Shown: piece after piece, positions 32,043 through 62,330 of the stretch
How positions within the stretch are numbered: the stretch's first letter is position 1
Layout of the letters: the number at the start of each line of letters is the position of its first letter
Assembly (NCBI GenBank): GCA_044892525.1
Contig: CM097885.1
Coordinates: forward strand, 17,548,001-17,612,000
Direction: 5' to 3'
Source: Schmidtea polychroa
Taxonomy: Eukaryota
DNA length: 64,000 bases
The notes under the pieces: generated by a model
What the model saw: only the letters and a program-made list of their open reading frames with translations
Told to the model about the DNA's origin: nothing
Databases searched by the model: none
Made by a program: the position numbers and the translations under genes

Positions 32043-34483
32043 CTGACTCCAGAGGCAATTGGTGGTATAGAGTTGCAAATGGAACGATTTCAAAGAGCAA
32101 AAAATACTTTAAAGATAAATAATTCGATACTATTGAACATTGTAAAAAAGAATCAAAATGTTTTTATGGCTGATAAATGGGACATTGGCTGCACAAAGCT
32201 GTTGAAGCATAAGATAGAAACTCAAGGAAAACCGATAAATATTGAACCTTGGAGACAACCAGTGAACTTGGAAGGTAAAATAGATGAAGCGAAAAAAACT
32301 TATTGGAAAACAATAATATCAAAAAGTGTAATTCGCCATGGAACACTCCATTAATATGCGTCTCGAAGAAAGAAAAGCAAGATATCATATTGTCTTGATT
32401 TCAGGCAATTAAACCTAGTAACAGAGAGACAGGTGTTCCCTATGCCGAATATAGCAGAGATGTTAGATAAATTGGGTGGACCAAAGTATTTCAGTTCGAT
32501 AGATCTTGGAAATGCATATTATCAAGTAGAACTAGAAGATGAATCAAAGTTAAAAACGGCGTATTCAACCAAATCAGGGCAATACTGTTTTAACAGAATG
32601 CCATTTGGAATAGCAGCGGCACCAGGTATCTTTCAGGAACTGATGGGAAAAGTATTAATAGGTACTAGATATGCAGCAGTATACCTAGACGATATTTTGA
32701 TATTTACAGAAACGATCAATCACCACTAGGAAGTTTTAAATGAAGTGCTGTACAAAATTGAAAAGGCGGGTCTTAGGATAAACCCTGAAAAGTGCCAAAT
32801 CCTTAAAGCGGAAGTCAAAACCTTAGGTCACATAATAAACAAAGATGGAATACAGACGGACCCATCAAAGCTAGACGCGATTAGAAGAGCTATGCGGATT
32901 AAACAACAAAAAATTAATTTGGACTGACGGATGCAACATCGCATTCGAAAATATGAAAAATGTTTAAGTATTCTCACCTATTCTAGGGTTTCCAGATTTC
33001 GAAAGAGAATTTATTCTGGATACTGATGCGAGTTTTGACACGATTGGAGCAGTATTATCACAGAAAGATGACAACGGATGCGAAAAGGTTAAAGCATACG
33101 GTTCTCATGCAATGAGCAATCATGAAAAGGGATATAGCATAACAAGGAAAGAGTTGCTGGCAATCTATTATTTTTGTCAACACTTCAATCATTATTTTTA
33201 TGAAAAACGGTTCATTTTGAGAACGGACCATAAAGCTATCAATTTTATGTTATCCACAAAGAAACCAATAACAACTCAATTTCAGACATGGATTAACTAC
33301 CTCAGAGTCTGGATATTAAAATAGAGTATAGAAAAGGTACTGATCTTGCAAATGCAGATATGTTGTCAAGGAGTACACGTGGAACATGCAAACAATGTTT
33401 ATTGGCACACGAAGACGCGAAAGTGGAAAGAATGTAAACTCGGAGAATGAACACGATGGAAAAAGCTGAAGATAACAAGTGGCAAAAAGATAATAGAGAA
33501 ATAGAACAAATAAAAAAAGAAATAGCACAGGGTTCAAGTTGGAAATTTATACTGGTAGACAACGTGGCGAAAACGATAGAGGGTAAGATATGGATACCTA
33601 GAGAAAAAATACAAGAAATGATAAAGTGTATGCATATTTTGCTATCACACGCAGGAGCAGAAAAGGTGACAAAATATTTAGCGGACAATTACGATATGGG
33701 AGACATAAAAGAATCAGTTACAGAAACAATTGGACAATGCGAGGCATGTCAAAGAACGAAAGTAGTGACAACAAAGATGAAGGAAGAGACAATAAAGCTG
33801 ACAGTAGAGGAGCCATGGGAAAAAATGAACATTGATATATGTGTTCCATTACAGGAAACATTCAGAAAGAAAAGATTTATATTCGCAATGATTGATCAAT
33901 TTAGCAGATAAATCTATCTGACTGCTGTCGCTAAACAGGATGAAGAAACGGTGAAGGAAACAATACTACAAAAATGGATTCTTAGATTTGGAGCACCAAA
34001 GGAAATTCACACAGATAGTGGAAAAGTATTTGAATCTAAGACGATGAACGAGTTTACAAAATCAATGGGAATTACACTATGCTTTTCAAGTCCATATCAC
34101 CATAATACAAATGGTGTGATAGAACATCAATTCAGGACAATAAGAGACTATATAAATGCATCATTAAAAGAAAAAAGTAGAACAGATTGGGCAGAGATCA
34201 TACCAGAGATTGAATTTACCATGAATGCAACATTTCAGAAATCAATTGGACGAAGTCCCGCAGAAGTAATATTTGGAAGAAAAATAGCTCGAGAACAATT
34301 TCATAATAAAGCGACGATTTCACAAAAAGAAGATACAAAGAAACAACGCAGACAAAGAGATCATTCAATATTGGAGATGAGGTTCTGGTAAAAGTAGAAC
34401 CAAAAACGAAAGACAAGGAAATAAACGAAGGGCCATACAGAATAATGCAGAAGATCCACGATCCCCGATATCTGCTACAAGAC
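30975..34483 (+). pseudogene. pol: Gypsy pol (protease, RT, RNase H, integrase), disrupted
   Basis: Motifs CLLDTGSTVN (present twice), SSIDLGNAYYQ, RMPFG, YLDDIL, FILDTDAS, KELLAI, RTDHKA, H..LSH..CEAC, HTDSGKVF, SPYHHNTNGVIE and GPYRI, with many stops and frameshifts. The last codons resume at 62280. Confidence 0.93.
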
Positions 34484-39509
<5,026 letters not shown>

Positions 39510-40427: not shown

Positions 40428-43400
40428 TTAGTCCGATAAAATGACATCATCAATGTCAGTAACATCATCATTATTTATAATTCTTGGACTGTCCTGATCA
40501 TCGAAAGATGGGCTTTCGCCACCAAAAAGCGGTCCAATCTCTTCATGAGTAAATACCTGGCCAGCATCAGTTTCCTCAAATCCTAAATAATGTCCATATG
40601 CCAGACTGGTATTAGGCCCCACCCATAGTCTCTTGTCATCGTTGTTCGACAAGGCTATCTTCCTATTCTTGAAAGTAAAGAGCTGATGGTTTCTAGTACT
40701 TATTCTCGTTTGTGGCACCGTATATACTACGCTGTTGTTGTAGCAGTCTAAATAAGACTGGTGCCCTATCTCAGTATTACCAAGCTGAACTCCCTTAGCC
40801 CTAAGTGTTGCTGTATCTCCTAACAAACTATAACACTTAGGGCGCAAGAACACCCACTCCTTATAACCAAGCCCTTTACTTTCATCCTTAAATTTCCCTA
40901 TCACAGAATCCAAACTCTTTGAATACAAAGGATGAGCAGGATCATAATTACTAGTGTCTAGAAGATTATCACGAATCATTGCCGGCAAAAGAGTGTCAAG
41001 CTTACAGTGCTTTATCTCTAAGAAAAAGGAGTCGGTGTCGCCGGCAACGATATTTATATCACAGTTAAATTCATTTCTATATTTTGCCAATTCTATATAC
41101 TGTAACTGGTACATCCTCAGTTTAGACAGGTCTAGCACAGATTGGCCAATGTAGCTAGGCCTGTCTAAACATATAGAATCCTTATTTAGATGAGCTGCAA
41201 TCAGATCATCATCAATTCTGATAGATTTTCTGAATGTAGGTTTTGAGGCATATACAATCATCTTTTCAGCTGAATTGCATAGCCTCAAATTCATCCGTTT
41301 TTTAAGGTTTTCCACGGATTTCCCATACAGACTATTATTAAATAATTTATATAAATCTCTATGCAGCTCGCATGTAGAATTTGAGAGCAAATTAGTATTA
41401 GTTGATATGTAATCTTTAAAAATAGGTGCATGCTTAAATTTAATTGCCCTATGTACATTTTTAATTAAAGCCCCCAATTCAATATACAATTTGAGAAGTC
41501 GTCAATGAAGAACATGGTTCTTCTTCGGCCAATGCGTGAGCATCAGCTTCTCAACTTTTGAATCTGGCGGGCACATTTTTTCCGGAGCAATCGGAAAATC
41601 ATTCAAAAAATCATGCAAGCAATCAGGGATATCGATATCAACCTCCATAGTATAGCCATATGGAAGGTTATCAATATCAGCATTCATACATTCATACAAG
41701 ACAGAATCAAGGTCATCATACACCCATTCAAAATCACCATACGGAAGATTTTGGCTTAAGGCCCAACCATACAAGTTGTTTATATCTATATACAAGAGTT
41801 CTGTGTCTTCAGAACTTACAACATAATGTTTGTTAACAAATGTTAACCCACCCCGTATCCCTCCTTCATAGAAATTAAACATTTCCATGTCCTGTAAAAG
41901 TTCAATGGGTTCCTTTAATGTCATAAGCGCTGAGGCCCATGACATACCGGGAATACCATAAAAATTTAGAGGCTCAAGACCATTGTATGCAATGGCCTTT
42001 TCACGGAATTGTGTAAAATAATCTGCGAGGAGAAACACATCAAGTTTAAGGTATGTTAACATATAGTCTAACATATTGTTGCAATTTTGTTGAGTCCAAA
42101 TAACTTGGGCTAATTCATATTCATCATTAGACACAGAATCCCAAATAGGAGGCAATTCAAGAGTTGATTCCAGGACCTCAAGAGATGTAGCGAAGTCATA
42201 AGGGAAGATACCTTTTGCTCGAACAATTGCGCCATCAAAAACAGAAGAAGTTAAAGGCAGATCGGAAAGAGTCTTAACAGCTTTTGCAAGTGATGAATTA
42301 ACAAACTGCATGCTGTCAATAAAACGAACAGGCAGTTTGTTAATGTACGCGATGAGAGAGATAAATTTTTCCGTAGTGGTTGGAATAATATTCAATTCCC
42401 AAGAAGGAAAATTATTCAAACCATACTTCAAAATATGATGGAGGTCATACCCCCTAAAATTGTGAAATACAACAGGTAACTGTCTCTGAATTCTGCGAGA
42501 CACATTACATTTCCTACAGGCAGCACCAAGATACTTACCTGTGAAGTGACAATGGTCCCTAACTTTATCTCTAATAAATTTTTTACAAAGATAGCAGGTC
42601 CTGGAATTATAAAAGGCACGATCTTCAGCGAAAGACAAGGTTTGCATAGGCTTATTACCGTTAATTTCGTAATATGGTAGGACAATTGTGACAGCAATTT
42701 CCTCCACCTTATGCAAGAAAGACAACACGCAATCCTCACCAACAAACTCATAATAAAATCTAGTTTTGTTATAATTGTTAATTAGTAACATGCCTGCTGT
42801 TATTGGCATGTGTTTTTGATGGTGGGTGATATCCTCAGGTAAAATCGACTCAAAATCGGCATATATCACGAATGGCGGGGTTACTGTTTTTGCATAGTTT
42901 GAGAATATTAAATTTTTCTCTTTCGGTAATGTATATAAAGTAGAACCTATTTGATTCTTACGGCATAGGTCTACATGGATATCATATGCGCTCCTATGTC
43001 TGAAGCCATTAAGGCAATGTGGGCACCATTTGACGCGAATCCAAAGGTGACAGGAGCTATTTGGGTGTGAATTCATAAGTTTTTGAAGATCAAAAACTGC
43101 GGTGTAATGAAAATTATCACCGTCTTCTAATAATAATAAATATATGGGTTTACCACCTATAACCTTAGATCGGTGCATAATATCTAACTGGGGATGATGA
43201 GGGATATAATCTTCATTGTTGATAGGTTTCGCTGGTTTATTTCTATATATTAAAACGTTAATAGCTAAGTTCAGTTCACGGTTTTTGCGTTCGAATTTAG
43301 GTATGTTACTTAATCTCATCGGGCAATCACTAATGGGGTCAAAATTAATTTCATCCAAATAATTTTGGTAAGCACTAACTCGATGCTTATTTCTGCGTAT

Positions 43401-44426
43401 AACATCACGCTTTAAGAGGGCTAGAACACTATATATAAAACACATATCATCATCTGTGTTCTGGATATTGACAATTGCGTATTTAGACTTTAACGCTATC
43501 GGGGTGGGGATATAACTATGTCCAGCTAACCTATTCATAATCTTATACTTATTTATTATGAAGTCAATTTCTTTTATTTTAACAACCCGCCATCCGCTAC
43601 CTAAATATGTGAATTTTTCTATCTTATTATTTAATTTAGTGATGCCATTGATTAAAAAGTTTTCTGAAAAAACTTCGGCGTTATTGGAGAAAAAATTATC
43701 TCGGATTTCGCCATCTTTCTCAAATTGTATGAGAACCGTGAACTGAATTTTAACGGGCCCCATACCGTTCATTTCTGATACTAGTTTTTGAATAATTTTT
43801 GGTGTTATTGCTATCTGTACTAAGGCGTCTTTCTCCACGTCAAACCTTAGATTTTTTCTAGCCCCCTTAAAATCTATTTCTATTTCTGGCTCGTCGTCTA
43901 GATCGACTGAACCGCCTATTTGATTATTTAGTATATTATTTAGGATATTATTTAGGTTATTATCTATTTCATCACCACCATCATTAACTTTAACAATTTT
44001 AGATGGAACACAAGACCCAGGACTAACAGCAGGCCGTTTTTTATTTTTAATTAGATTATTATTCACATTTTTAATTAGATTATTATTCACATTTTTAATT
44101 ATATGTTCTGCGCTAATCGCATCATTATTTACAGTTTTAATTATATGTTCTGCGCTAATCGCATCATTATTTACAGTTTTATTTTTATATACAGTTTTAT
44201 TTACAGTTTTGATATGTTCTGTATTATTTAACTTATTAAAAAGTTTCTTTTTATTTAAAGTAAACTGATTTAGATGTTTACTATGTATATTATAAAAATC
44301 CTTATATTTTATAGGTTGGGAAGTCTGGCATAGTGGACATAAATAGTATTTGAGTCCATAGAATTTATGCCCATAGTATTTTTTCATGTTTTTGTGACAT
44401 ACTTTAGTATGCCCAGTCGAAGACAT
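40428..44426 (-). pseudogene. polB: Protein-primed family B DNA polymerase (one in-frame TGA at 41502-41504)
   Basis: ExoI YADFES, endonuclease-VII-like CYLC..RDHCHFTGKYLGAACRKCN, ExoII FHNFRGYD, KGIFPY, ExoIII YLKLDV, motif A YIDINNLYG, motif B KLFNNSLYGK and motif C GDTDS. The two track ORFs are in the same frame. Confidence 0.96.
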
Positions 44427-46524: not shown

Positions 46525-46857
46525 TTAAACATGAAACTTTTTGTACAACAACCACGCCAAACAGTGTTGACCACATGTTTAAGTCAAGGGATTTTGAAAC
46601 ATAGTTTTATTATACACAATAGGTTTCCCCATTGTTTGTAGTTTTGATATCAACAAAGCCGGGTAATAAAAACCCATAGGATCGAACACGATTATATTAC
46701 CAGGTTTCATATATATAGCTATCCAATGTTCTCCACCAAGATGAGACGATTGAGTATTGACGATTATTGCTTGATTATTGCTCAAATATGGAATTTTATC
46801 AAGAGGAAAAACTCCAACAAATTCATTTCCCAATATCTGTTTTCCAATTCTCAGTAC
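46525..46857 (-). pseudogene. Adenain-like cysteine protease (in-frame TAA at 46579-46581)
   Basis: FVGVFPLD, IVNT...GEHWIA, FDPMG, then FQNPLT*TCGQHCLAWL. The catalytic His, Asp, Gln and Cys are all present. The start codon is unresolved. Confidence 0.92.
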
Positions 46858-46928
46858 CTGAACTTAAATAAATCCAGAGTATAAAAAAGAACTTACTCCA
46901 TGACAACTTTTTGTGTTTCAATATACAT

Positions 46929-48149
46929 TTATACCAACACAGTTCTATTTGCAGTAATTTGAACTTCATTTTCAAATACTCCATATATTATAACATGTAC
47001 TGGTTCAGTAATAGCTTTTGCAAACTTTATATCCAGTCGTAAATTTCCATTTTGAGGTAATTGACTTTGATTTAAATCAAAATCAGGGGCTAAAACAAAT
47101 GTAAAAAATGGGTATTTGCTTTTAAAATCCTCTAGAGTTATTCCGCAATTCAAATTTTTATCTAAATAACCCAGATTTCTAACAATACTCTGCATATATG
47201 TCGCACAGTAATTGTCATTCTCGAAATCTTGAATATATGTTTCTCTATAATCAGTATTTTTCGACAAAGTCAATGATGTAACACCAAAGTTTTTGAAAAT
47301 TGAGCTGGACGCAGTATATGATCCATTATATTGTGCTTCACTTTGAAATGTTATCAGAATAAAATTAGGCATTCTTCTGTCACCAAATATTTGTTCTTTA
47401 TAGAATGATGAAGCACCTTTAGCAATAGCAAATTGTACAATTTCCTTTGTTTTTAATGGATAAATTGCATGTTTTGAATTAAGACCCAATTGATGACCTG
47501 CTAATACTGAGGGGTCTACTCGAACTCTTCTCACCAATAATTTTGCATCAACTAATTGACATATTGTTGTAGTAGTTGCACTAATAAGAGATAATGCAGA
47601 ATCAGACCTTTTCAGTCTAATATGTACATTAACTCCCGGTAGTAAATATTTCGGTTGATCCATAAAATCAAGTTGTAATGATGAGCACATGGTGAAAACC
47701 TTTGAGCCTTTTACCCAATTTTTTCTTTCATCATCACTGCCATAGCCCATAGGAGTAAGACATGAATTTTTAGTATCGGAATTGTAATTTAAAATAGTTT
47801 CTATTAATGCCTTGTGAATGAATGTATTATTTCCGCCCTCAATCTTGATATTATTAAATCCCAACACTGCATCTTTAAAAAGAGTATGAAACAGGAAATT
47901 GTTCGGTATTACATCTGCATTGGCATCCAAAACTTTTCTATCTTTATCTACAACCTTAATCTGAACAGTCAATAAAGTATCGTTCAAATCTAAATATTCG
48001 GTTTGTGAACCATTAATATAAAACTCGATATCATTTCTACTATCGGTAATTGAATTCATAGGAAAAACTTCCTCAAATGCCCCAAATTCTATTACAGCCT
48101 GGGGCGACGGTCTATCAAATATACATAATTCAGATTTACCACAAATCAT
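46929..48149 (-). CDS. Major capsid protein (double jelly-roll, PY/hexon-like)
   Basis: Intact 406-aa ORF with Polinton MCP motifs KSEL.IF..P, IEFYINGS..EYLDL..TLL, QPKYLLPGV...IRLKR and GNLRLDIKFA. Confidence 0.92.
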   Translation of the reverse strand: MICGKSELCIFDRPSPQAVIEFGAFEEVFPMNSITDSRNDIEFYINGSQTEYLDLNDTLLTVQIKVVDKDRKVLDANADVIPNNFLFHTLFKDAVLGFNNIKIEGGNNTFIHKALIETILNYNSDTKNSCLTPMGYGSDDERKNWVKGSKVFTMCSSLQLDFMDQPKYLLPGVNVHIRLKRSDSALSLISATTTTICQLVDAKLLVRRVRVDPSVLAGHQLGLNSKHAIYPLKTKEIVQFAIAKGASSFYKEQIFGDRRMPNFILITFQSEAQYNGSYTASSSIFKNFGVTSLTLSKNTDYRETYIQDFENDNYCATYMQSIVRNLGYLDKNLNCGITLEDFKSKYPFFTFVLAPDFDLNQSQLPQNGNLRLDIKFAKAITEPVHVIIYGVFENEVQITANRTVLV

Positions 48150-49408
48150 TTTGCAAATATAGTTCCATGTCCTTTCATTCGTTTGTTTATACGTGATATT
48201 CCATGTCTTTTACGTTTTGGAGCTGGAGCTGGAGCTGGAGGTTTTTGAAACATACCTGCAACCCCAGGTAAAACTTTCCCTAATTCAGCTAAAGCATTTG
48301 TTTTTAGAGATGGTAATATTTTCTGTTCATTCATAATAACATCTTTTGCAGTTTTCATACCAAAACTACCAATACGTTTAAGAATAGGCAGGGCAAAACA
48401 ACCAATAGTTCTCAACCATCCTGATCCGTACTGTTTACCTTTTGGAAAGTTTATAAGTTTTCCACTATCATCACGAATATTTATTTCTATATTGTTTATA
48501 CATGAACTTGCTATTGGTAAATACATGGGATTATCGATATTTATATTGACAACTTCATCATGTTCATATTTTCCAATCCATACCGATTTCAAAAGAGGAA
48601 CACTGGAATCACCAACAATTATGGGTTCGATAATGTTAGTATATATGAACATTTGTTGATGATGTTCTAGTATTCTTGGTTTGCGTATACCAGTCGATTT
48701 TTCTCGATATTTTTGCCTATCTAATCCAAGTGAATTTGCCAAATTTTTATCAAATGTAACTTCGCAAATATCCTCATTCAAACTGAAGGTAAACATCAAA
48801 TCTTTCACAATTTCCAAATTTTTAAATATGTGTGAACAATTGAACTTTAAATATTTAAGTAAATCATCAAGTTTATCAAAATATAATTCATCAGCAAAGG
48901 TAAATGATTCTTCAACTTCATCATTATACGACACAGATATTTTGATTTCTTCTTTCATTACACTGTTTGCTTCAAATAGATTAAAACGTAATAAATACTC
49001 GGTCTCTGTAACAATATTTTTCAACTTATTGCAACCCATTCGTTTGGCATCTTCAATAGTTTCGAATGTTATTGTAAATGGTTTAAAATCTCAACTGAAA
49101 TTTAATCCATCCTTGTAAAACATATAGCAATGCGAATCTAATATTTGGTTCGGAATATGATATGTTTTATCATAATTACTAATAAAAAAGATACCGCTAC
49201 ATGTTTTCACAATATTCCTTCTGAAATCAATCGTACAATGACTATAAAATGGGAATGTGTTGTACACGAATGTAAAATCTTGCAGTGCAACTTCCCAGTC
49301 ACCATTTAAAGAAATCGGATTCTGGAGATTGACCATAAATTTACTGGCTTGATTGTCTGGATGAATTAATGGGCAACTATTGCTCGGTAAAATAGTATAA
49401 AAATTCAC
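48146..49408 (-). pseudogene. Minor capsid (penton) protein, in-frame TGA at 49091-49093, running in frame into a basic core-protein-like tail
   Basis: N-terminal FYTILPSNS...PDN..SKF...L..PISLNGDWEVAL and C-terminal FIYTNIIEP.IVGD..VPLL...PMYLP....INNIEINIRDDSG, followed directly by QYGSGWLRTIG..ALPILKRIG. The two track ORFs are in the same frame. Confidence 0.85.
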
Positions 49409-50037
49409 TTTACTAGGTCTTTTGCTGATATCCATGACGGGTTTTGATAACCATGCCATTTGACATAGTATTGTTTATCCTTACCGACCTTTTTAGTTTT
49501 CAATATTTTTTGAATTCTAAATACTTTTGGGGGAGTAATGACTTGTAATTCCTGCTCATAAAATTTCCCTTGTACAATATTATTGTCATTGTCTTTGATG
49601 ACATACATTACAGGATTCTGTTTAGTATTTATTTTTGAAATTACAAAGACTTCATCACTCCAATTTGTATCAAAATTTTTAATAAATGGTGATGCACTAA
49701 TTTTACTAATTCTAACATGGTCACCGACTTTATATTTAGGTTTTGCAATTTATACAGATTTCTTAGAAGTCAATGATGTTTTTGATGTAATATCAACAGG
49801 TCTCAATCCATTCAGTCCTCGATGTGATGAATGATTATAACTTGTTATTATTTTCGGTAAAGCATTTACCCATTTTTTATTACCTTGATGCACGAACAAT
49901 TTCTTTAATCTATCTCTCAATGTTCGATTAAATCTTTCAACATGGGCAGCTTTGTATTGAGAATGTACCGAGTAGTGATTTATTTTCAGTTTATCGAGGA
50001 TTTGCTTAACTTTGCTATTGTAGAATTCTTTACCTAA

Positions 50038-50117
<80 letters not shown>

Positions 50118-50505
50118 CTAAATCTGTTTGCAAGTTATTAGGATGTCCATCTTTAAATAAAATATTAATTGCCTTGGAAATTTCTTCTGCAGATTTTGCC
50201 TTGACTGGTATTGCTCGTGCAAACCTGCTGTATACATTAATACATGTTAAAATATATTTATTTCCATTGTTAATTTTCGAATAAGGTATCATCTCCATCA
50301 AATCCATTTGCCATAAATTGTCAATATTAAATGTTTTATATGCTCTTGTTGGAAATCTTTTCCGCATTGGTTTGTTCAAACTGTACGCAAGCTGATCTGA
50401 TAACCACTTCTGGGTTTCTTTTTTCGAATTCGGAACTCTTTACTTTAATTTTGCCACTCCACCGAAACCGGCTTCGTCTTCTGGGTTCGTCCAAATCTTC
50501 TCCAT
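49405..50505 (-). pseudogene. Retroviral-like (rve) integrase with C-terminal chromodomain; two in-frame TAA and one 84-nt intron
   Basis: One frame from ATG 50505: MEKIWTNPEDEAGFGGVAKLK*..WLSDQLAYSLNKP, WQMDL, LQTDLG[intron 50117-50034]KEFYN, VERFNRTL, YNHSSH, SV*IAKPKYKVGDHVRI and YYVKWHGY..PSWI. Stops are at 50440-50442 and 49750-49752. Confidence 0.93.
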
Positions 50506-50566
50506 TACAACAAGAAGATTTAAAATTAAATTTAATGTCGGGAAATGAAGGATTAGCACCCATTGT

Positions 50567-51094
50567 TTATGACTGTGTAACTCCACCTAATAATGATAAT
50601 GCCAGAGGTATCAATGCACCAATAAATCCACCTTGTTGTTTATATATAATTTTCCTCATTTGCTTACGATTTTTATTATTTACTAAAGATAACAATGGTT
50701 TCCTATGTTTGCTCAATAAATGCCTTTTTGATTTACTGATTTGATTTTTTCCTTTGACTACTTTAAGTATAATATTGAGTAAATCATCGACAACGAAATT
50801 TGGGAATGATTGCAATATATTCATTCTTTTCATACTCGGAGCCTTTAACAATGCATTAAAAAATGGAAAACTTCGATAATTTTTAACTACTTTTTTACTG
50901 GTTTTACTGGTTTTACGGGTTTTACGTTTAGGTTTAGGATTTTTCGAAATAAGATTCATTGCAGAGAAATTTTCAGTTACAAGTTTTTTAGATGGTGTAT
51001 AACTAGTTGTTGGTGGAACTTTTGGAACTTTAATACTCTTTCTAATACTTTTTCTTAATTTCCTAATATTTTTCACCCTTGCTTTTAGAAACAT
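50567..51094 (-). CDS. Basic core-like protein with QQGG|F motif and amphipathic C-terminus
   Basis: Very K/R-rich 175 aa ending KQQGGFIGALIPLALSLLGG. This type of ORF typically lies between ATPase and integrase in Polintons. Confidence 0.78.
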   Translation of the reverse strand: MFLKARVKNIRKLRKSIRKSIKVPKVPPTTSYTPSKKLVTENFSAMNLISKNPKPKRKTRKTSKTSKKVVKNYRSFPFFNALLKAPSMKRMNILQSFPNFVVDDLLNIILKVVKGKNQISKSKRHLLSKHRKPLLSLVNNKNRKQMRKIIYKQQGGFIGALIPLALSLLGGVTQS

Positions 51095-51112
51095 TATTAT
51101 TCATAGAGGTTT

Positions 51113-51739
51113 TCAACTTTGTTTATAAACCATGGCACCTTTTGGGTTGAAAATATCGGTTTTTACTCGTAAATCACCGGGACATTGTTGCGTGAAATCA
51201 AGAAATATATATCCATGAGGTATTTTTGTAGCATCTTGAAATGCACTGATAAGAAAATTACGATTGTTAGGGTATGCTTGACGTGCAAGAAAATCAATCA
51301 CTGTTGCATCTCTAGGATTCTTGAAAATAACTAAATATTGTACATTTAAATTACGTGTTCGATGTGCACCACCTTGATGAAATAGATTTTGTGTTATGAA
51401 AATAACTGTTACACCGACATGTCTGCTGATCTTTGTAAATAAATTATTAAAATCTTTTTCTTTATTAGCTTCTTGATACAGATCATCGATAATAATGACA
51501 TCACCTTTCTTTAATCGGCTGGACCAGTTTTTATCGAATCCCTTTACTATTTTCATGTTTTTTAATTTACAGAAACTTGATTGAGTTAATCCATGTTCTT
51601 CATCAGCACCCCTATGCCAATAAATCCTGTTGAATTTTGATTTGAATAAATTTGATTTTAGTAATTTACAAACAAATAATGTTTTTCCACTACCACTCGG
51701 ACCAACGATTTGGTATACTGCATCATTTCTTAATTCCAT
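51113..51739 (-). CDS. A32/FtsK-HerA-family DNA packaging ATPase
   Basis: Walker A GPSGSGKT, Walker B IIIDD, SRH, IFITQNLF and RTRNLNVQYLVIFKNPRD. Confidence 0.95.
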   Translation of the reverse strand: MELRNDAVYQIVGPSGSGKTLFVCKLLKSNLFKSKFNRIYWHRGADEEHGLTQSSFCKLKNMKIVKGFDKNWSSRLKKGDVIIIDDLYQEANKEKDFNNLFTKISRHVGVTVIFITQNLFHQGGAHRTRNLNVQYLVIFKNPRDATVIDFLARQAYPNNRNFLISAFQDATKIPHGYIFLDFTQQCPGDLRVKTDIFNPKGAMVYKQS

Positions 51740-51804
51740 TTCAAAAATTTTTTAAGTGTGTATTTGTTTATATTCAATGATTTAATGAACTCGTGCTCAA
51801 TTTG

Positions 51805-51812
51805 TATATAAA
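51805..51812 (+). promoter_or_regulatory. TATA box upstream of the TBP-like gene
   Basis: TATATAAA ~30 bp before ATG 51839, in the 100-bp divergent gap shared with the ATPase. The AT-rich background weakens this. Confidence 0.45.
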
Positions 51813-51838
51813 GACTAATTTTCATAAATGATTTAATA

Positions 51839-52276
51839 ATGTTAGCAAATATAAATTATCGAGGAAATTTTGATGTATCGAATATGAGGTTCCCACCCGG
51901 GAAACCCCAGCAAATTATCGATAGAAGCGGGAAATATCCGATAATATTTTTCAAGACTGGTAAATGTAGAATCATGGGATGTAAGAAACCCTTGGATATT
52001 AATAAATTACAATATCGAATAAATAATATTAAAATTCAATCAATTACCGTTACTATGGATATGGGACATAGTATCAATCTATATAACATGTCGAAAAAAT
52101 GTGATTGTATGTTTGAACCGGAATTGTTTCCGGCACTAAGACTATTAAAATATAACCCTATATGTGTCAACGTGTTTGCTAGTGGAAAGGTTGTCATGTT
52201 GGGGTTGAGAAATTTGGAGTATAGAAAATTTGTTGACAATGTTCGAAATGAGATAATTTCATTGGTCGATTTCTAA
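51839..52276 (+). CDS. TATA-binding-protein-like protein (145 aa)
   Basis: Two TBP repeats: IIFFKTGKCRIMGCK and IKIQSITVTMDMGHSINL...FEPELFPALRL...VNVFASGKVVMLG. Compare TBP ALIFSSGKMVCTGAK and FKIQNMV...YEPELFPGLIYR...LIFVSGKVVLTG. Confidence 0.88.
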   Translation: MLANINYRGNFDVSNMRFPPGKPQQIIDRSGKYPIIFFKTGKCRIMGCKKPLDINKLQYRINNIKIQSITVTMDMGHSINLYNMSKKCDCMFEPELFPALRLLKYNPICVNVFASGKVVMLGLRNLEYRKFVDNVRNEIISLVDF

Positions 52277-52350
52277 TTGGTTAATTTCTAATTGGTTATT
52301 GATTGATTTAAACAAACGGTTTTTTGTTTAGGATTCATTTATTCAACAAA

Positions 52351-52762
52351 ATGTACAAAATTCCAAGCGCAGCAAATATAATGAAAGATATTGACGACTA
52401 CGGTAAATTTTATATTTATTATTTTCATTTTTATATTTGTTATTTTAGAAAAATATTTAGAAGTGATGTTGAATCGGATAAAATATTATTACCCGCAAAT
52501 TGCAGAAATTATCAAGGATCGCGAACCTGAGATCATTCCAGATCTGATATTCTATGAGACTCAAATTCGAATCATGGAGGTATTCCATCAATTCCTATGG
52601 GATCTGAAGATCAATAGGACAATGAAACAAATGGAGACGGAATACCAATGCATCATCGGATGCTCATGTTGTGCCGATCGATATCGGCGATATGTTGAAT
52701 GGGAGTTAGTGAAAACTCTGAGAAGGTTTCACTACTCCCGGATTGTAGATATAGGATATTAA
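52351..52762 (+). CDS. Maverick hypothetical protein (121 aa, 2 exons, C..GCSCC cluster)
   Basis: Exons 52351-52402 and 52449-52762 are joined in frame across a 46-nt GT-AG intron. AATAAA follows the stop. Confidence 0.72.
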
Positions 52763-53114: not shown

Positions 53115-53535
53115 ATGACCAAGAAAATTTCATGCACCGAAAAACCTATATAAATGGTACAACCAGTTCAAATGTTCCACAACTACAAAATGTATTTTTT
53201 GAAAGAAGAAATCAATATGAAATTGGTTGCACCGATCAAGCTAATTCCAACTAAATTTCAATTCTTATCCGGCACGCTTTCAATGATTGATGTCAAAACT
53301 ATTGATGATGTTTTTAAACGGTTAGATTCGAATCTATCATGTAATCAACATGCATGGTTCAACAATAGATATGCAAGATTTTATGATCTTTTATGATTTT
53401 TTTGATGAAATCAGTTTCAAAGAAAATGAAAATTGGTATATAACAATTGCAATCCAGGGATATAAAGTTGATAATAATGATGTATATTCTCCTATTTGGA
53501 AAATTATGTCTGCTAGACTTTCACAAATATTTTAA
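53115..53535 (+). pseudogene. Maverick hypothetical protein (in-frame TAA at 53151-53153; 10-bp duplication frameshift at ~53378-53397)
   Basis: Removing one TTTTATGATC/T copy joins track ORFs 53154-53396 and 53350-53535 (..YARFYDFFDEISFKENENWYITIAIQGYK..). Confidence 0.68.
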
Positions 53536-53661
53536 TGTTATATTTAATAAATGTTTTAGTCATATTTGTTTTTCTCTTTATTAATTGCAACATAAATGCA
53601 AATGACATGCAAATTTAACAAAGAAAATCTATAAACAAACTTAAAATATAGCTTTAAAGTG

Positions 53662-54038
53662 ATGAAAATGACTGCAGAAAAAGGTTAACATGATTAATTA
53701 ATTACCGAATTATTTATTATTTAGAATTATTAATCAACTTTTTGTTGGAAAAGTTAGCAGAAATAGCTGGTGTGAAAATTGAGGACATATTATCTGTTAC
53801 AAATGCATTAAATATCGGCTGGGTAGTTGAGAGTCAAGATTCAGGATTTGATGATCAGGAAGAAGAAACTCAAGAAACTGATACTCAAGAAATTGATGAG
53901 GAAATATATGAACCTATAGATGAACCTATAGAGGAACCTAAAGATGAACCTAAAGATAATATTACGAATGATTGTATTGATCATGTCGTTGAAAATATAA
54001 TGAAATGTGGAGATGACGACTGCGAATGTGTTAATTAA
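53662..54038 (+). CDS. Maverick acidic hypothetical protein (2 exons)
   Basis: Exon 53662-53683, a 41-nt GT-AG intron, then exon 53725-54038 give MKMTAEKELLINFLLEKLAEIAG... with an E/D-rich middle and Cys-rich end. Confidence 0.7.
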
Positions 54039-54107: not shown

Positions 54108-54619
54108 TTATTTAAAAAATCGCGATAAAGCATACAAAATAGCAACACCTGTTGCAAGTTTTATATAGTTTTTAAATTTCATTTTCTGTTCATCTATTTC
54201 CTTCGCATTTCTGGCGAGTTGATTCAGAGTTGATCCGCCATTGGCTTCAATCCATGGTTGAAACTTTGACTTGATTATCTAGAAAATATATATTAATAAA
54301 ATATAGATTATAAAAGTATTACTTCTTGAGACCACTGATAATAATGTTCAGAGTCCCATAAACTTCTTTCGATTATGATCTTCATATAAGCGAACCCTAC
54401 TAGTATTCGGGTCCACTTCATCTCATCATCGCATAGACAGTTAAAAATCCTATGAAAATAGAATTTTTTCGTTTCGAGGCAATCGCAATTGAGCACATCC
54501 TCATAATTAATGTGATTTCCTTCTATAATCTTTTCGGTCCGATCGACCAGGAAACTGAGGCTTTCCATAATCTTCTTGTTAATAAGTTCGCTTAAAAGAT
54601 TTTCCATAAAATGAGACAT
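54108..54619 (-). CDS. Bcl-2-family-like protein (155 aa, 2 exons, tail-anchored)
   Basis: Exons 54619-54323 and 54278-54108 with a 44-nt GT-AG intron. BH1-like FHRIFNCLCDDEMKWTRILVGFAY, BH2-like FQPWIEANGG and tail LATGVAILYALSRFFK. Confidence 0.82.
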
Positions 54620-54724: not shown

Positions 54725-55225
54725 ATGAAAACTATATTCATATTGCTAATTATTATAACGAGTGTGTGCTCACACAATACAACAATAACAGTGAAGTCTT
54801 TTAATAAATCAATATGTGTTTGTCCGAATACCGCCAAGTTGATGGATATTTTATATATCCTCGATAAACCAAATTGGTCAAAGCATCCAGGAAAAAGAAT
54901 ATCTCAAAGATTGGAGAATTTAGAAAACAGTTATGAACTATCATTTGCATATATACAAAATATAAAAATTAAATTGATTGATCATATTGAAGTTTTCAAT
55001 AACTCTATTGTTGAAAATAAGAAGAATATGAAAATTATTGATAAGAAGCATGATTATTTGTTAAAAAAGATTGAATTATTATTAAGAGAAATTAAAACAA
55101 TCAAAGGATCAATAGAATATCTGAAAATCAATTCAACGTTACCAATTTCAAACAATAATGCTGCGAATAGTAGTACATCAATATTAGGTTTACCTTTGTT
55201 AGTTTTACATTATTTTTTTGTTTAA
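54725..55225 (+). CDS. Predicted secreted/surface coiled-coil glycoprotein with GPI-like C-terminus
   Basis: Signal-like MKTIFILLIIITSVCS, several NxS/T sites, a heptad-like central region, then a small-residue stretch and a hydrophobic end (NSSTSILGLPLLVLHYFFV). Confidence 0.7.
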   Translation: MKTIFILLIIITSVCSHNTTITVKSFNKSICVCPNTAKLMDILYILDKPNWSKHPGKRISQRLENLENSYELSFAYIQNIKIKLIDHIEVFNNSIVENKKNMKIIDKKHDYLLKKIELLLREIKTIKGSIEYLKINSTLPISNNNAANSSTSILGLPLLVLHYFFV

Positions 55226-55366: not shown

Positions 55367-62273
<6,907 letters not shown>

Positions 62274-62330
62274 CAAGACCAAAGTTGGAAAATGCTTCAA
62301 AGAAATGTTGAAAAGATGAAGAAATTTCTT

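Follow-up and report, generated by a model that had tools for sequence, protein, structure and literature searches.

TBPL, the TBP-like gene described here, sits inside a 27.8-kb Maverick that occupies positions 34484-62273 of the window, that is, of the whole 64,000-nucleotide stretch of DNA analyzed. The element has terminal inverted repeats (TIRs) of about 4.7 kb and is flanked by a 6-bp target-site duplication (TSD), CAAGAC. Its termini read AGTAGAGGGAAG... at 34484 (+ strand) and 62273 (- strand), and CAAGAC flanks both of them; thus, the element is TSD-bounded, as an earlier note on this DNA had proposed, with ends that lie further out than the repeats first implied. The left TIR holds five copies of ATGACTCATC in its outer 500 bp and three at its inner end. 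The right TIR has an extra nested inverted-repeat segment (55980-58272), within which lies a RING-finger ORF (57373-57699). The element and its genes are laid out as follows.

34478..34483, no strand: left target-site duplication, CAAGAC
34484..39211, +: left terminal inverted repeat, starting AGTAGAGGGAAGTGTGCTCC (inner boundary approximate)
40428..44426, -: two-part conserved gene, with the same two-part match in all related loci (tblastn: L029, L035, L072, L077, L080, L090)
46579..46863, -: adenain-like cysteine protease, N-terminal part of the frame (Peptidase_C5, 24.5 bits against a cut-off of 21.3)
46929..48149, -: orf406, putative double-jelly-roll major capsid protein (atlas 0.98, cluster with PF21738 on 65% of members, a lead)
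48146..49459, -: orf297 and orf122, putative minor capsid protein (a single 361-aa ORF in locus L057; no match in Pfam)
49405..50563, -: integrase in three frames, comprising an N-terminal piece, an rve core broken by a poly-Ile microsatellite, and a chromodomain
50567..51094, -: orf175, conserved basic protein
51113..51739, -: A32/FtsK-type genome-packaging ATPase (Pox_A32, 30.4 bits against a cut-off of 22.8)
51839..52276, +: TBPL, the TBP-like gene that is the subject of this report (145 aa, ATG start, intact frame without a stop)
52351..52762, +: Cys-rich accessory gene (probable short intron at about 52404-52449, read by eye)
53154..53535, +: conserved OB-fold (T7 gp2.5-like SSB) gene of ~110 aa, in two frames in this copy
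53662..54038, +: acidic right-arm ORF (probable intron, read by eye)
54725..55225, +: orf166, with hydrophobic N- and C-termini, and with a CCAAT-type box (gattgg) and TATAAAT upstream
55367..62273, -: right terminal inverted repeat (inner boundary approximate)
62274..62279, no strand: right target-site duplication, CAAGAC

The minus-strand genes form a run that leads from the ATPase through orf175, the integrase and the capsid ORFs to the Peptidase_C5 protease. The ATPase start codon (ATG at 51739) lies 99 nt from that of TBPL, which confirms the head-to-head arrangement of TBPL with an ATPase-to-protease run that the note had described. The integrase of the window scores 27.5 bits for rve, under the cut-off of 32.6, and 24.7 bits for Chromo; its homologue at locus L057 is intact, with 359 aa, 56.9 bits for rve and a chromodomain. 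The putative capsid gene orf406 is conserved in 16 loci and gives no match in Pfam. Pfam and PDB sequence searches with the gene at 40428..44426 also produced no match; the nearest atlas clusters (0.96) carry PF03175 on 34-45% of their members, which is a lead only. Homologues of the Cys-rich accessory gene were seen in L114, and a Cys-rich ORF of the type found in L024 in eight loci. The ~110-aa OB-fold gp2.5-like gene usually adjoins TBPL in related elements (26 loci); it was considered as a partner of TBPL and dropped, as its model resembles a gp2.5-type single-stranded DNA-binding protein (SSB). A Pfam scan of 26 of the 27 ORFs of at least 60 aa in the element, all but the nested ORF at 42428-42751, gave no match to RNA polymerase or TFIIB, in agreement with the earlier statement that the element has no RNA polymerase of its own.

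TBPL is a genuine, though minimal, TBP homologue that is carried by a whole Maverick clade. The 145-aa ORF reported in the note is indeed intact, with an ATG start and no internal stop, and its assignment to the TBP family stood up in both profile and structure searches. The product matches PF00352 in two stretches with 57.2 bits, against a cut-off of 22.9 (E = 1.6e-15). When the PDB was searched by sequence, TBPs made up 35 of the 36 entries listed at E ≤ 10, the top match being 2z8u_A (2e-11), and when Foldseek was run with a structural model, all 44 matches at E ≤ 1e-3 were TBP entries (TMq 0.67-0.79). Identity to the TBP paralogues of the host is at most ~25-30%; hhalign aligned TBPL to these paralogues with a probability of 98, leaving a gap of 13 residues at the site expected for lobe-1 helix H2. 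At E ≤ 1, Pfam returned only TBP and a sub-threshold DUF4467 for TBPL, and no herpesvirus vTBP family (ORF24/UL87/BcRF1).

The AF2 model of TBPL, built from a 97-sequence alignment, has a pLDDT of 96.0 and a pTM of 0.84. VIA-align superimposed it on TBP cores with a Z score of 13.3 and an rmsd of 2.4 Å over 143-145 residues, pairing residues 1-145 of the model with residues 66-240 of yeast TBP. In the model, the whole 145-residue length is taken up by the TBP core, with no added domain and no N-terminal tail. Both TBP repeats are therefore present at the level of the fold, as had been claimed, and the first is shortened, as had also been claimed. By DSSP, residues 1-60 form strands only, bar a 3-residue turn; the first lobe keeps its strands and DNA-facing sheet, and both of its helices, H1 and H2, are missing in the model, the hhalign gap falling at H2. 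The basic cluster of N-lobe H2, which is the TFIIA/TAF1/NC2/Mot1 site of eukaryotic TBP, is absent from TBPL, where the 13-residue deletion falls. This cluster is described as a regulator interface in the available text of PMC7221094.

The C-terminal lobe is canonical, with two DNA-kinking Phe residues and a Glu-Pro-Glu motif. Conservation among the homologues is high at thirteen positions that are invariant or at least 90% conserved (E93, P94, E95, F97, P98, A99, L100, R101, F38, F113, C43, R44 and M46). Three kinking Phe had been read as retained, and this holds: F38, F97 and F113 pair with Phe positions of host TBP in PDB sequence alignments and hhalign. The note also had the first kinking Phe as looking replaced; that position lies outside the hhalign coverage and does not align at residue level, K22-D28 contains no Phe, and a conserved F18 lies five residues upstream. 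Relative to cellular TBP, C43, R44, M46, S68 and N111 on the DNA face have been replaced and then frozen, with C43 and M46 of lobe 1 invariant and R44 near-invariant. Since one kinking Phe is apparently missing and several DNA-face residues differ, TATA-type binding by TBPL is not assured. Glu93 and Glu95 are invariant in alignment A1 and at least 90% conserved in alignment A2, and the E-P-E of TBPL pairs with the E-P-E of solved archaeal and microsporidian TBPs in PDB sequence alignments. According to the available text of PMC7221094, two C-lobe glutamates of TBP touch TFIIB/TFB directly; the Glu-x-Glu of TBPL is thus a candidate TFIIB contact, its role taken from that source. In the host TFIIB gene (L124/L125), an intron splits exactly the TBP-contacting region.

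At least 150 copies of TBPL are present in this genome, and all 150 that were scored are intact. Protein databases yielded 109 full-length homologues at E ≤ 1e-3 from 113 candidates, every one of the 109 with a precomputed PF00352 domain; relatives of TBPL form 64 clusters of 50% identity at E ≤ 1e-30, and 181 of 381 metagenome stretches encode one. An IMG/VR scan with the TBPL profile had as its sole match one distant giant-virus-type TBP. A search for syntenic copies in other Mavericks found the gene in syntenic loci: where contigs are long enough, syntenic Mavericks carry TBPL, although their ATPases are only 27-40% identical. Five loci hold PolB, integrase, capsid, ATPase and TBPL together. 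An ATPase is present in 27 of the 80 loci kept: 24 have it downstream of TBPL in the same direction, 2 have it in divergent orientation and 1 has it elsewhere. Between co-resident element subfamilies, the morphogenesis genes are ~95% identical and TBPL is only 53-63% identical.

TBPL is under purifying selection. Pairwise dN/dS was 0.03-0.07 at a dS of 0.02-0.3 (147 pairs) and 0.23-0.34 at a dS of 0.3-1.6 (219 pairs). Among 20 window-type copies, which were the best protein matches of 4174 first-look candidates and are for that reason biased toward few amino-acid changes, 17 codons vary, 16 of them synonymously and 1 non-synonymously (P = 7e-11 in a binomial test with 0.197 as the neutral synonymous fraction). 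That TBPL is a host TBP captured recently and neutrally, in this copy or family only, is ruled out by the identity to host TBP of no more than ~25-30%, by the occurrence of TBPL in metagenome Mavericks and by the purifying selection.

What is new here is the division of promoters: TBPL has canonical TATA+Inr promoters, and the ATPase and capsid genes have YATAAACAW instead. The boxes of the window are these.

48184..48190, -: ATAAACA before orf406 (capsid), within the orf297 coding sequence, 41 nt to the orf406 ATG
51120..51126, -: ATAAACA before orf175, 32 nt to the orf175 ATG
51765..51771, -: ATAAACA within TATAAACAA, the proposed class-II (late) TATA-like element, its first A 32 nt from the ATPase ATG
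51805..51812, +: canonical TATA box of TBPL, TATATAAA, 34 nt before the TBPL ATG
53631..53637, +: ATAAACA before the acidic right-arm ORF, 31 nt to the ATG at 53662

A canonical TATA counterpart of ATAAACA would be TATAAAAG; the element's canonical box reads TATATAAAG.

ATAAAC was found at -90..-1 of the ATPase start in all 26 distinct lineages, against a background of 6.4% in 16,746 windows, and in 19 of them its first A is 31-37 nt from the ATG. The position at +5 is C in 26/26 and that at +6 is A in 23/26; TATAAA is contained in 19 of the 26 boxes. The hexamer also precedes the capsid gene in nine of nine lineages and orf175 in two of two, and it precedes TBPL in merely 5 of 58. TATA[AT]A[AT][AG] lies upstream of TBPL in 29/58 lineages (background 3.4%), compared with 3/26 for the ATPase, and an Inr-type TCA[TC][TA] occurs in the -35..-1 interval of TBPL in 46/58 (background 17.5%), compared with 2/26 for the ATPase. 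Boxes of the canonical TATA and ATAAAC types stand at equal distance from their ATGs. In the inner element of the window, 9 of the 11 ATAAAC[AG] sites fall on the strand that codes for the morphogenesis arm. The candidate consensus, YATAAACAW, is found on the ATPase, capsid and orf175 genes ~32-37 nt ahead of the ATG. An enrichment of CCAAT/ATTGG upstream of TBPL, striking by eye, was dismissed after counting (16/58 against a background of 19%).

Three points bear on how these counts are to be read. The motif copies of the capsid gene and orf175 fall in coding sequence, where they make Ile-Asn codons, so that peptide constraint contributes there. The link between TBPL and YATAAACAW is one of co-occurrence only, and all loci scored for promoters were picked via TBPL; when TBPL-less Mavericks were sought for comparison, scanning IMG/VR with the ATPase profile gave no relative, and searching this genome with a divergent ATPase led to the same Maverick family only. 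Finally, forkhead factors have the consensus RYAAAYA, which ATAAACA fits, so that a host factor could read it.

No sequencing run is on record as RNA; contigs of four runs guessed to be RNA cover 50400-52750 patchily and cannot serve as evidence of transcription. In one of these runs, X4, poly-T loose ends stand before 50449, 50920 and 51069, and a further loose end at 51749 is probably adaptor-like. Were X4 an RNA run, these ends could mark poly(A) tails of transcripts that cover orf175 and the ATPase on the minus strand, and a 5' end located 10 nt ahead of the ATPase start codon.

We tentatively propose, with a probability of about 45%, that TBPL may act as an element-encoded late-promoter TBP that works with host TFIIB and Pol II, its binding being hypothetical. 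Under this proposal, an ordinary TATA+Inr promoter of host type would drive early transcription of TBPL, and the protein would then bind YATAAACAW where a TATA box would stand in the capsid genes, orf175 and the gene of the packaging ATPase. The canonical lobe would read the ATA(A) at the 5' side of the box, and the remodelled lobe (C43, M46, R44) the deviant AACA at its 3' side. Box-bound TBPL would recruit host TFIIB and Pol II beyond the reach of host TBP regulators. In this way, a Maverick that has no RNA polymerase would gain a switch from early to late genes, comparable to the vTBP system of herpesviruses. The putative redirection of Pol II to element promoters, which the earlier note had raised, draws indirect support from the retained Glu-x-Glu and from the element-specific class of TATA-like boxes on the morphogenesis genes. 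Host TBP might, on the other hand, simply bind the TATAAA inside the motif, which counts against the late-promoter proposal.

A broader version, for which we see rather poorer odds, is that a whole Maverick clade might run a two-stage programme. In it, TBPL, expressed from TATA+Inr, would read YATAAACAW by its remodelled lobe and join TFIIB-Pol II via a Glu-x-Glu stirrup, and it would escape TFIID, NC2 and Mot1, as the helices to which regulators bind are deleted. If this is true, Mavericks would have invented the vTBP strategy of herpesviruses a second time, independently and from a genuine TBP, and no smaller natural TBP saddle that nucleates a Pol II pre-initiation complex would be known. 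The 53-63% identity of TBPL, set against ~95% for the morphogenesis genes, would then represent modular exchange or diversification of a regulatory module.

TBPL could instead be a general, regulator-insensitive substitute for TBP that acts on any TATA-like box of the element and boosts all of its transcription, either by escaping control through NC2, Mot1 and TFIID or by making up for limiting host TBP. Such a protein would have no specificity for YATAAACAW, which would be left to host TBP or a forkhead-type factor. We consider this unlikely. A canonical C-lobe with its TFIIB motif, together with an N-lobe that has lost H2, is what a general substitute might look like, and both the TATAAA within 19/26 ATPase boxes and the forkhead consensus, matched by ATAAACA, would provide the other readers. 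Yet ordinary TBP binding does not explain the C at +5 in 26/26 boxes and the A at +6 in 23/26, or a spacing of 31-37 nt that is fixed across lineages with 27-40% ATPase identity, and sites of enhancer-type factors, such as a forkhead reader would use, seldom hold a fixed distance to the ATG. Also against it is the lobe-1 DNA face, which is both remodelled and strictly conserved at C43, R44 and M46.

That same conserved, remodelled face, along with the positionally fixed TATA-like boxes of the element, is left unexplained if TBPL is a decoy or shut-off factor that titrates host TFIIB (or Brf) or blocks host TATA boxes, damping host transcription or innate responses while the element replicates. 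The small size of the protein, without an added domain, and the retention of TFIIB-contact residues where the surfaces for cooperation with TFIIA and TFIID are gone would suit a decoy; at least 150 intact germline copies, however, would expose the host to a general transcription poison at each expression, and we hold this to be improbable. About equally improbable is a non-transcriptional role in which TBPL, together with the SSB-like protein and the ATPase, bends AT-rich DNA where replication starts, in the terminal repeats or at a packaging signal. These conserved neighbors would also suit a replication or packaging role, the OB-fold gene adjoining TBPL in 26 loci and the ATPase following TBPL directly in 24 of 27 ATPase-bearing loci, but gene order is by itself weak evidence, the repeated terminal motif ATGACTCATC is not TATA-like, and a near-invariant Glu-Pro-Glu has no obvious use outside transcription initiation.

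Mavericks/polintoviruses lack an RNA polymerase and are thought to depend on the host. A conserved and selected element-encoded TBP, combined with two sharply separated promoter classes, offers a concrete model of an early/late switch for an ancient virus lineage. As a natural "minimal TBP" that, judged by its sequence and model, would consist of the saddle and the TFIIB contact motif with no lobe-1 helix, TBPL speaks to the question of how much of TBP is required to nucleate a pre-initiation complex. TBPL and the YATAAACAW box could also be put to use as an orthogonal promoter/TBP pair.

There is precedent for a TBP-like gene in a polinton-type virus. A "TBP" gene label appears in the maps of MELD viruses with an adintovirus-like PolB, in the legend of Fig. 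5 of Starrett 2021 (Virus Evolution, PMC8502044), and a preprint legend of the same work puts TBP among "homologs of host proteins". In the parts compared here, section 3.4 and the legends, there is no analysis of TBP structure, conservation, selection or promoters, and family membership is not deducible from them. These legends were all that emerged from the literature on Mavericks, Polintons or adintoviruses with TBP or promoter motifs, in a survey of the text and figure legends of openly available papers. The label in the MELD-virus maps corrects one premise of the earlier note, and the note's observation that TBP lies outside the usual Maverick gene set is upheld.

Giant viruses (Nucleocytoviricota) likewise encode members of the TBP family; the NCLDV-like contig L021, for example, has a 182-aa, two-repeat TBP that is 25% identical to TBPL. 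In contrast to TBPL, which has neither beside it, these viruses encode an RNA polymerase and, in nearly every case, a TFIIB-like partner as well. The available text of PMC7221094 gives the TFIIB-contact glutamates of giant-virus TBPs as only ~40% conserved, with pairing to viral TFIIBs instead, whereas TBPL keeps the glutamates and has a truncated first lobe.

With cellular TBP and TBP-related factors, TBPL shares the PF00352 family, the saddle fold, a C-lobe with both kinking Phe and the Glu-x-Glu, and the S4-S5 hairpin of lobe 1 with its Phe. It differs from them in being encoded by a mobile element, in its length (145 aa, against a core of ~180 aa in cellular TBP), in having one apparently non-aromatic kinking-Phe position, and in a lobe 1 that is without H1/H2 and so without the TFIIA/TAF1/NC2/Mot1 surface.

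The TBP mimics of herpesviruses include EBV BcRF1 and HCMV UL87. As described in the available text of PMC12529657, the mimics of beta- and gamma-herpesviruses work with host Pol II at late promoters with a non-canonical TATA-like box, which corrects the earlier note's association of viral TBP homologues with viruses that have their own RNA polymerase. TBPL resembles these vTBPs, of which KSHV ORF24 is one, in its TBP fold and in its setting, a nuclear DNA virus or element that has no RNA polymerase of its own, and the Maverick has an analogous split into two promoter classes. By sequence, at a Pfam threshold of E ≤ 1, TBPL and the vTBPs have nothing in common beyond the fold. The same text presents ORF24 as a large, multidomain protein that depends on a C-terminal domain to bind DNA, is assembled with Pol II and ORF34 beforehand, and has a model described as incompatible with direct TFIIB binding. 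Unlike ORF24, TBPL is the saddle alone, without the extra Pol II- and DNA-binding N- and C-terminal domains, and keeps the TFIIB contact motif. A herpesvirus-type vTBP strategy may thus have arisen independently in polinton-type viruses.

A Maverick clade carries a conserved, selected minimal TATA-binding protein (TBP), here designated TBPL. The element that encodes it is a Maverick/Polinton of 27,790 bp (34484-62273), with AGTAGAGGGAAGTGTGCTCC starting both ends, the 6-bp duplication CAAGAC on either side, and terminal inverted repeats (TIRs) of ca. 4.7 kb; the earlier note had correctly taken it to be bounded by a target-site duplication. The TBPL open reading frame (ORF) is intact and begins with an ATG (51839) that diverges from the ATPase ATG (51739) with 99 nt between them, which bears out the head-to-head arrangement with the ATPase-to-protease run described in that note. 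The main features are listed here.

51839-52276, plus strand: TBPL, 145 aa
ATG at 51739, minus strand: packaging ATPase, A32-type (Pox_A32, 30.4 bits vs 22.8)
minus strand: orf175, conserved basic protein
49405-50563, minus strand: rve integrase with chromodomain, in three frames in the window copy
minus strand: capsid module of two ORFs; orf406 is nearest to double-jelly-roll clusters (score 0.98 in the atlas, a resource of protein clusters; lead only)
minus strand: adenain-like protease (Peptidase_C5, 24.5 bits vs 21.3)
minus strand: putative protein-primed PolB (atlas score 0.96; lead only)
34504-34970, 38493-38544, 55810-55861, 61882-62253, also 28277, 28350 and 56139: copies of ATGACTCATC

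The integrase core of the window copy is interrupted by a poly-Ile-coding microsatellite, and the gene is intact in a related Maverick locus (L057; rve, 56.9 bits); the window copy is probably non-autonomous, though its TBPL, ATPase, and capsid ORFs are open. The PolB candidate had no match among Pfam families or PDB sequences. Pfam scanning of 26 of the 27 element ORFs of at least 60 aa revealed no RNA-polymerase or TFIIB-like domains, in keeping with the earlier remark that the element lacks an RNA polymerase.

Several other features of the element were recorded. The right TIR holds an additional segment (55980-58272) with its own inverted repeats (56147-56487 and 57783-58123, 99% complementary), within which a minus-strand ORF (57373-57699) specifies a RING-finger protein of the C3HC4 type (108 aa; zf-C3HC4_3, 41.2 bits) whose C-terminus has short matches in other Maverick subfamilies. 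The window contains 19 copies of ATGACTCATC, against 0.09 expected, each TIR having five within its outermost 500 bp and three near its inner boundary; the sequence includes an AP-1/GCN4-type core, TGACTCA. Two copies near 28.3 kb, outside the element, may mark another TIR fragment. A 103-aa ORF (54308-54619, minus strand) has a weak, sub-threshold match to the Bcl-2 family (E=0.063, 14.3 bits vs 31.4) and homologous pieces in two same-genome Maverick subfamilies (L116, L118).

TBPL matches the Pfam TBP family PF00352 in two stretches (E=1.6e-15, 57.2 bits, curated cut-off 22.9), and TATA-binding proteins account for 35 of the 36 PDB entries found by sequence at E<=10, the best being Methanocaldococcus TBP (2z8u_A, 2e-11); in the PDB sequence alignment, residues 63-130 fit the second TBP repeat better than the first. 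An AlphaFold2 model built from a 97-sequence family alignment (mean pLDDT 96.0, pTM 0.84) gave 44 Foldseek matches in the PDB at E<=1e-3, all of them TBP entries, with the following match at E=0.087. VIA-align superposed model residues 1-145 onto yeast TBP 66-240 and human TBP 164-337 (Z 13.3, rmsd 2.4 Å, 143-145 residues aligned), and its top non-TBP row had a Z of 6.5. Because the model superposes on whole TBP cores, TBPL is a complete TBP saddle compressed to 145 residues. By DSSP, lobe 1 consists of strands only (E2-10, E25-28, E35-38, E42-48) and lobe 2 has the full S1-H1-S2-S3-S4-S5-H2 pattern. Profile-profile alignment with host TBP paralogues covers residues 32-127 (probability 98, E=2.4e-13) and places a 13-residue gap exactly at helix H2 of lobe 1. 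The presence of both repeats and the shortening of the first, as described in the earlier note, were therefore confirmed.

Across the 97 sequences, C43, M46, F97, P107, C109, N111, F113, and G122 are invariant, and at least 90% conservation was observed for N4, I5, N6, Y7, P23, F38, G41, R44, and G47 in the N-terminal part and for Q67, S68, E93, P94, E95, P98, A99, L100, R101, G116, and K117 in the remainder. Three of the four DNA-kinking phenylalanines are matched, by F38 (lobe 1, S4) and by F97 and F113 (lobe 2), as the earlier note had stated; its remark that the first looks replaced concerns a position that falls outside the profile alignment, where K22-D28 contains no aromatic residue and a conserved F18 lies five residues upstream. 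At several DNA-face positions TBPL has residues that host TBP lacks and that are then frozen (e.g., 'GKCRIMGCK' vs host 'GKMVCTGAK', 'IQS' vs host 'IQN'); their assignment to particular DNA contacts is presumed from TBP structures. TBPL 'EPELFPAL' aligns with 'EPEqFPgL / EPELFPGL' of solved TBPs. According to Ravarani et al. 2020 (PMC7221094), both glutamates of this EPE loop touch TFIIB/TFB at an Arg and a Thr that are conserved there, and they are only ca. 40% conserved in giant-virus TBPs, which are almost always accompanied by a viral TFIIB; TFIIA, TAF1, NC2, and Mot1 use a surface of clustered basic residues on helix H2 of the N-lobe. Unlike giant-virus TBPs, TBPL retains both glutamates and has no adjoining viral TFIIB; unlike cellular TBP, it has lost N-lobe helix H2, the regulator surface.

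The host genome encodes a canonical intron-containing TBP and at least five paralogous TBP-domain loci (L102-L111), which are about 25-30% identical to TBPL, with only one reaching tblastn E<1e-3. Two of these loci (L103, L104) lie ca. 38 kb apart, and three (L105, L107, L108) are single-exon ORFs of 166-215 aa. The same genome has at least 12 clustered intron-less TFIIB paralogues of 301-310 aa (C3:38.2-39.1 Mb and C1:23.8-24.2 Mb; e.g., L126:4572-5477, minus strand; Zn-ribbon 40.9 bits, TFIIB repeat 41.7 bits), distinct from the intron-containing TFIIB (L124/L125) and Brf1-like (L120/L121) genes; no Maverick genes were found among the ORFs of at least 150 aa in L126.

TBPL is widespread. A word-indexed search of ca. 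5.8 billion proteins yielded 109 homologs at E<=1e-3 among 113 candidates, mostly 144-165 aa long, covering the whole query at 37-97% identity; all 109 have a precomputed PF00352 domain, and nine carry the source name 'TATA-box binding protein'. When 1.84 billion cluster representatives were searched with a profile, 3504 matched at E<=1e-3, of which 822 reached <=1e-10 and 64 reached <=1e-30; the best ca. 100 are short proteins matched in a single end-to-end stretch. A relative is encoded in 181 of 381 pattern-matched JGI metagenome stretches, the best 80 of which were retained as loci and searched by tblastn with the window element proteins. The syntenic copies thereby sought were found: the ATPase occurs in 27 of the 80 loci (24 times downstream and co-directional with TBPL, twice divergent like the window copy, once elsewhere), TBPL follows the capsid gene in six and PolB in four, and five (L029, L035, L080, L090, L094) have PolB, integrase, capsid gene, ATPase, and TBPL together, the other contigs being mostly too short for neighbors to show. 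Because distant loci have an ATPase only 27-40% identical to that of the window, TBPL is, on sequence divergence, a long-standing part of this Maverick lineage. In the viral collection, the sole relative found was a TBP of ordinary two-repeat form (182 aa, sharing 25% identity with TBPL) on a giant-virus-like IMG/VR contig (L021, 9902-10450, plus strand), where inspection of the ORFs suggests ribonucleotide-reductase-like and PolB-like genes.

Within the 781-Mb S. polychroa genome, the best 150 of 4174 first-look TBPL candidates were scored, and all 150 were stop-free with 99-100% protein identity to TBPL. First-look searches with PF00352 and a divergent ATPase gave 2998 and 3483 candidates, and 150 of 150 scored matched each time under the E-value limit. 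Given these thousands of candidates, Maverick DNA must make up a sizeable share of the genome.

Complete TBPL coding sequences (89) were extracted from 108 loci with a match. Twenty window-type copies, which as top protein matches are biased toward few amino-acid changes, comprise 10 distinct sequences with 17 variable codons, 16 synonymous and one non-synonymous (E130K, private to the window copy); the binomial probability of at least 16 of 17 is 7e-11 at a synonymous-site fraction of 0.197. The proposed dN/dS comparison gave ratios of 0.033-0.34 over dS 0.02-1.6, and by these codon counts purifying selection acts on TBPL, both inside an element lineage and from one lineage to another.

Table. 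Nei-Gojobori comparison of TBPL (3916 pairs, non-independent; ratio is mean dN / mean dS)
dS 0.02-0.1: 124 pairs, ratio 0.033
dS 0.1-0.3: 23 pairs, ratio 0.067
dS 0.3-1.0: 12 pairs, ratio 0.23
dS 1.0-1.6: 207 pairs, ratio 0.34

The commonest TBPL neighbor in related elements is a ca. 110-aa protein with the motifs MxFLK...IQGYKT...TPIWKI and without any Pfam family. Its gene (window 53154-53535, plus strand; aligned with L024:1503-1838 and 19 further loci) adjoins TBPL in tandem or divergently at 26 loci, and occupies two frames in the window copy and one in L114. The four top structural matches of its AlphaFold2 model (pLDDT 94.8) are all of the gp2.5-type SSB family (T7 gp2.5, Z 7.8; phage Enc34 SSB, 7.6; DUF2815, 7.2; ASFV CP312R, 6.6), with 103-109 of 112 residues aligned, and it is probably the element's single-stranded-DNA-binding protein. 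In same-genome Maverick subfamilies (L112-L119), the ATPase, integrase, and capsid-module proteins are 95-96% identical to those of the window, with TBPL only 53-63% identical. Nucleotide identity to the window drops inside the ATPase gene, in its 5' half, and a second time on entering the intergenic region (97-100% at 51100-51400, ca. 85% at 51400-51700, ca. 71% intergenic, ca. 60% in TBPL). This indicates mosaicism at the regulatory module, and the regulatory arm may have undergone recombination or module exchange.

Two TATA-type boxes, alike in position and distinct in sequence, split the element's genes. We compared the 130 nt upstream of homologous start codons in the window and related loci, TBPL-bearing throughout, after collapsing near-identical sequences (at least 85% over 60 nt). 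ATPase-based scans of IMG/VR and of the S. polychroa genome turned up no Mavericks free of TBPL for comparison.

Table. Motifs upstream of start codons
ATAAAC, -90 to -1: TBPL 5/58; ATPase 26/26; capsid (orf406) 9/9; orf175 2/2; background 6.4% of 16,746 windows
ATAAAC, -60 to -20: TBPL 2/58; ATPase 25/26; capsid 7/9; background 2.8%
TATA[AT]A[AT][AG], -70 to -20: TBPL 29/58; ATPase 3/26; capsid 1/9; background 3.4%
TCA[TC][TA], -35 to -1: TBPL 46/58; ATPase 2/26; capsid 1/9; background 17.5%

The ATPase box reads ATAAACA in 23 of 26 lineages, its first A lies 31-37 nt before the ATG in 19, and the base just before the box is a T in 19 lineages and a C in six, giving the consensus YATAAACAW. 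In 25 of 29 cases, TBPL has its canonical TATA 31-49 nt before the ATG, the position of the ATAAACA box. In the inner element of the window, nine of 11 ATAAAC[AG] sites fall in the morphogenesis arm on its coding strand, including those 32, 32, and 41 nt before the ATPase, orf175, and capsid-gene ATGs; one plus-strand site lies 31 nt before a right-arm acidic ORF. The signal is positional, not compositional, since the 7-mer is not enriched across the entire AT-rich window (35 found vs 41 expected).

Promoters of the gattgg plus TATAAA type, as in TBPL, were recognized by eye ahead of orf166 and of the gene at 53154. TGTTTTA occurs at -100 to -30 upstream of TBPL in 14 of 58 lineages (background 1.6%; L024, L027, L028, L029, L036, L043, L044, L065, L070, L081, L083, and others), often followed by ATCATAATT immediately before the ATG, and TTGTTTA/TTGTTTTA upstream of TBPL resembles the reverse complement of the ATAAACA box. 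Contigs from one sequencing run mapped to the window (X4) have poly-T loose ends at 50449, 50920, and 51069, just past the minus-strand orf175 and ATPase stops. Another loose end, which we take to be adaptor-like, lies at 51749, 10 nt upstream of the ATPase ATG. These ends would fit separate polyadenylated mRNAs, from a run not on record as RNA.

We favor, with a probability of roughly 0.45, a reading in which TBPL would be made from a host-type promoter, would bind YATAAACAW, and would recruit host TFIIB and Pol II while being blind to host TBP regulators. The 3' half of YATAAACAW (AACA) does not follow the canonical TATA consensus; in TBP-DNA structures the 3' half of the TATA box is read by the N-terminal lobe, the lobe that is remodelled in TBPL. 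Weighing against this reading, the motif also fits the forkhead consensus, and coding constraint contributes at two motif sites, since the capsid-gene and orf175 boxes fall inside the coding sequence of the preceding gene. TBPL might instead be a regulator-insensitive but non-specific TBP substitute, which we consider rather unlikely. A DNA-bending role in replication or packaging, suggested by the neighbors of TBPL, is improbable, and we give just as little credence to TBPL acting as a decoy. Neutral capture of a host TBP is refuted.

Virus-encoded TBP homologs and mimics are known already; the promoter dichotomy of Maverick genes is new here. In the full text of papers on Maverick, Polinton, or adintovirus elements with TBP or promoter motifs, the only precedent found for a TBP gene in a polinton-type virus was a figure legend (Fig. 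5) in Starrett et al. (PMC8502044), which labels a 'TBP' gene in maps of MELD viruses with adintovirus-like PolB; their preprint puts TBP among 'homologs of host proteins'. The same literature contained no family-wide TBPL conservation in Mavericks, helix-less first lobe, retained TFIIB contact, selection signal, or promoter dichotomy. Functionally, TBPL has its closest analogue in the vTBP of herpesviruses, a large multidomain protein that brings Pol II to late promoters and whose model is described as incompatible with TFIIB binding (PMC12529657). Because of these differences, the Maverick solution would be independent of the herpesvirus one and mechanistically different from it.
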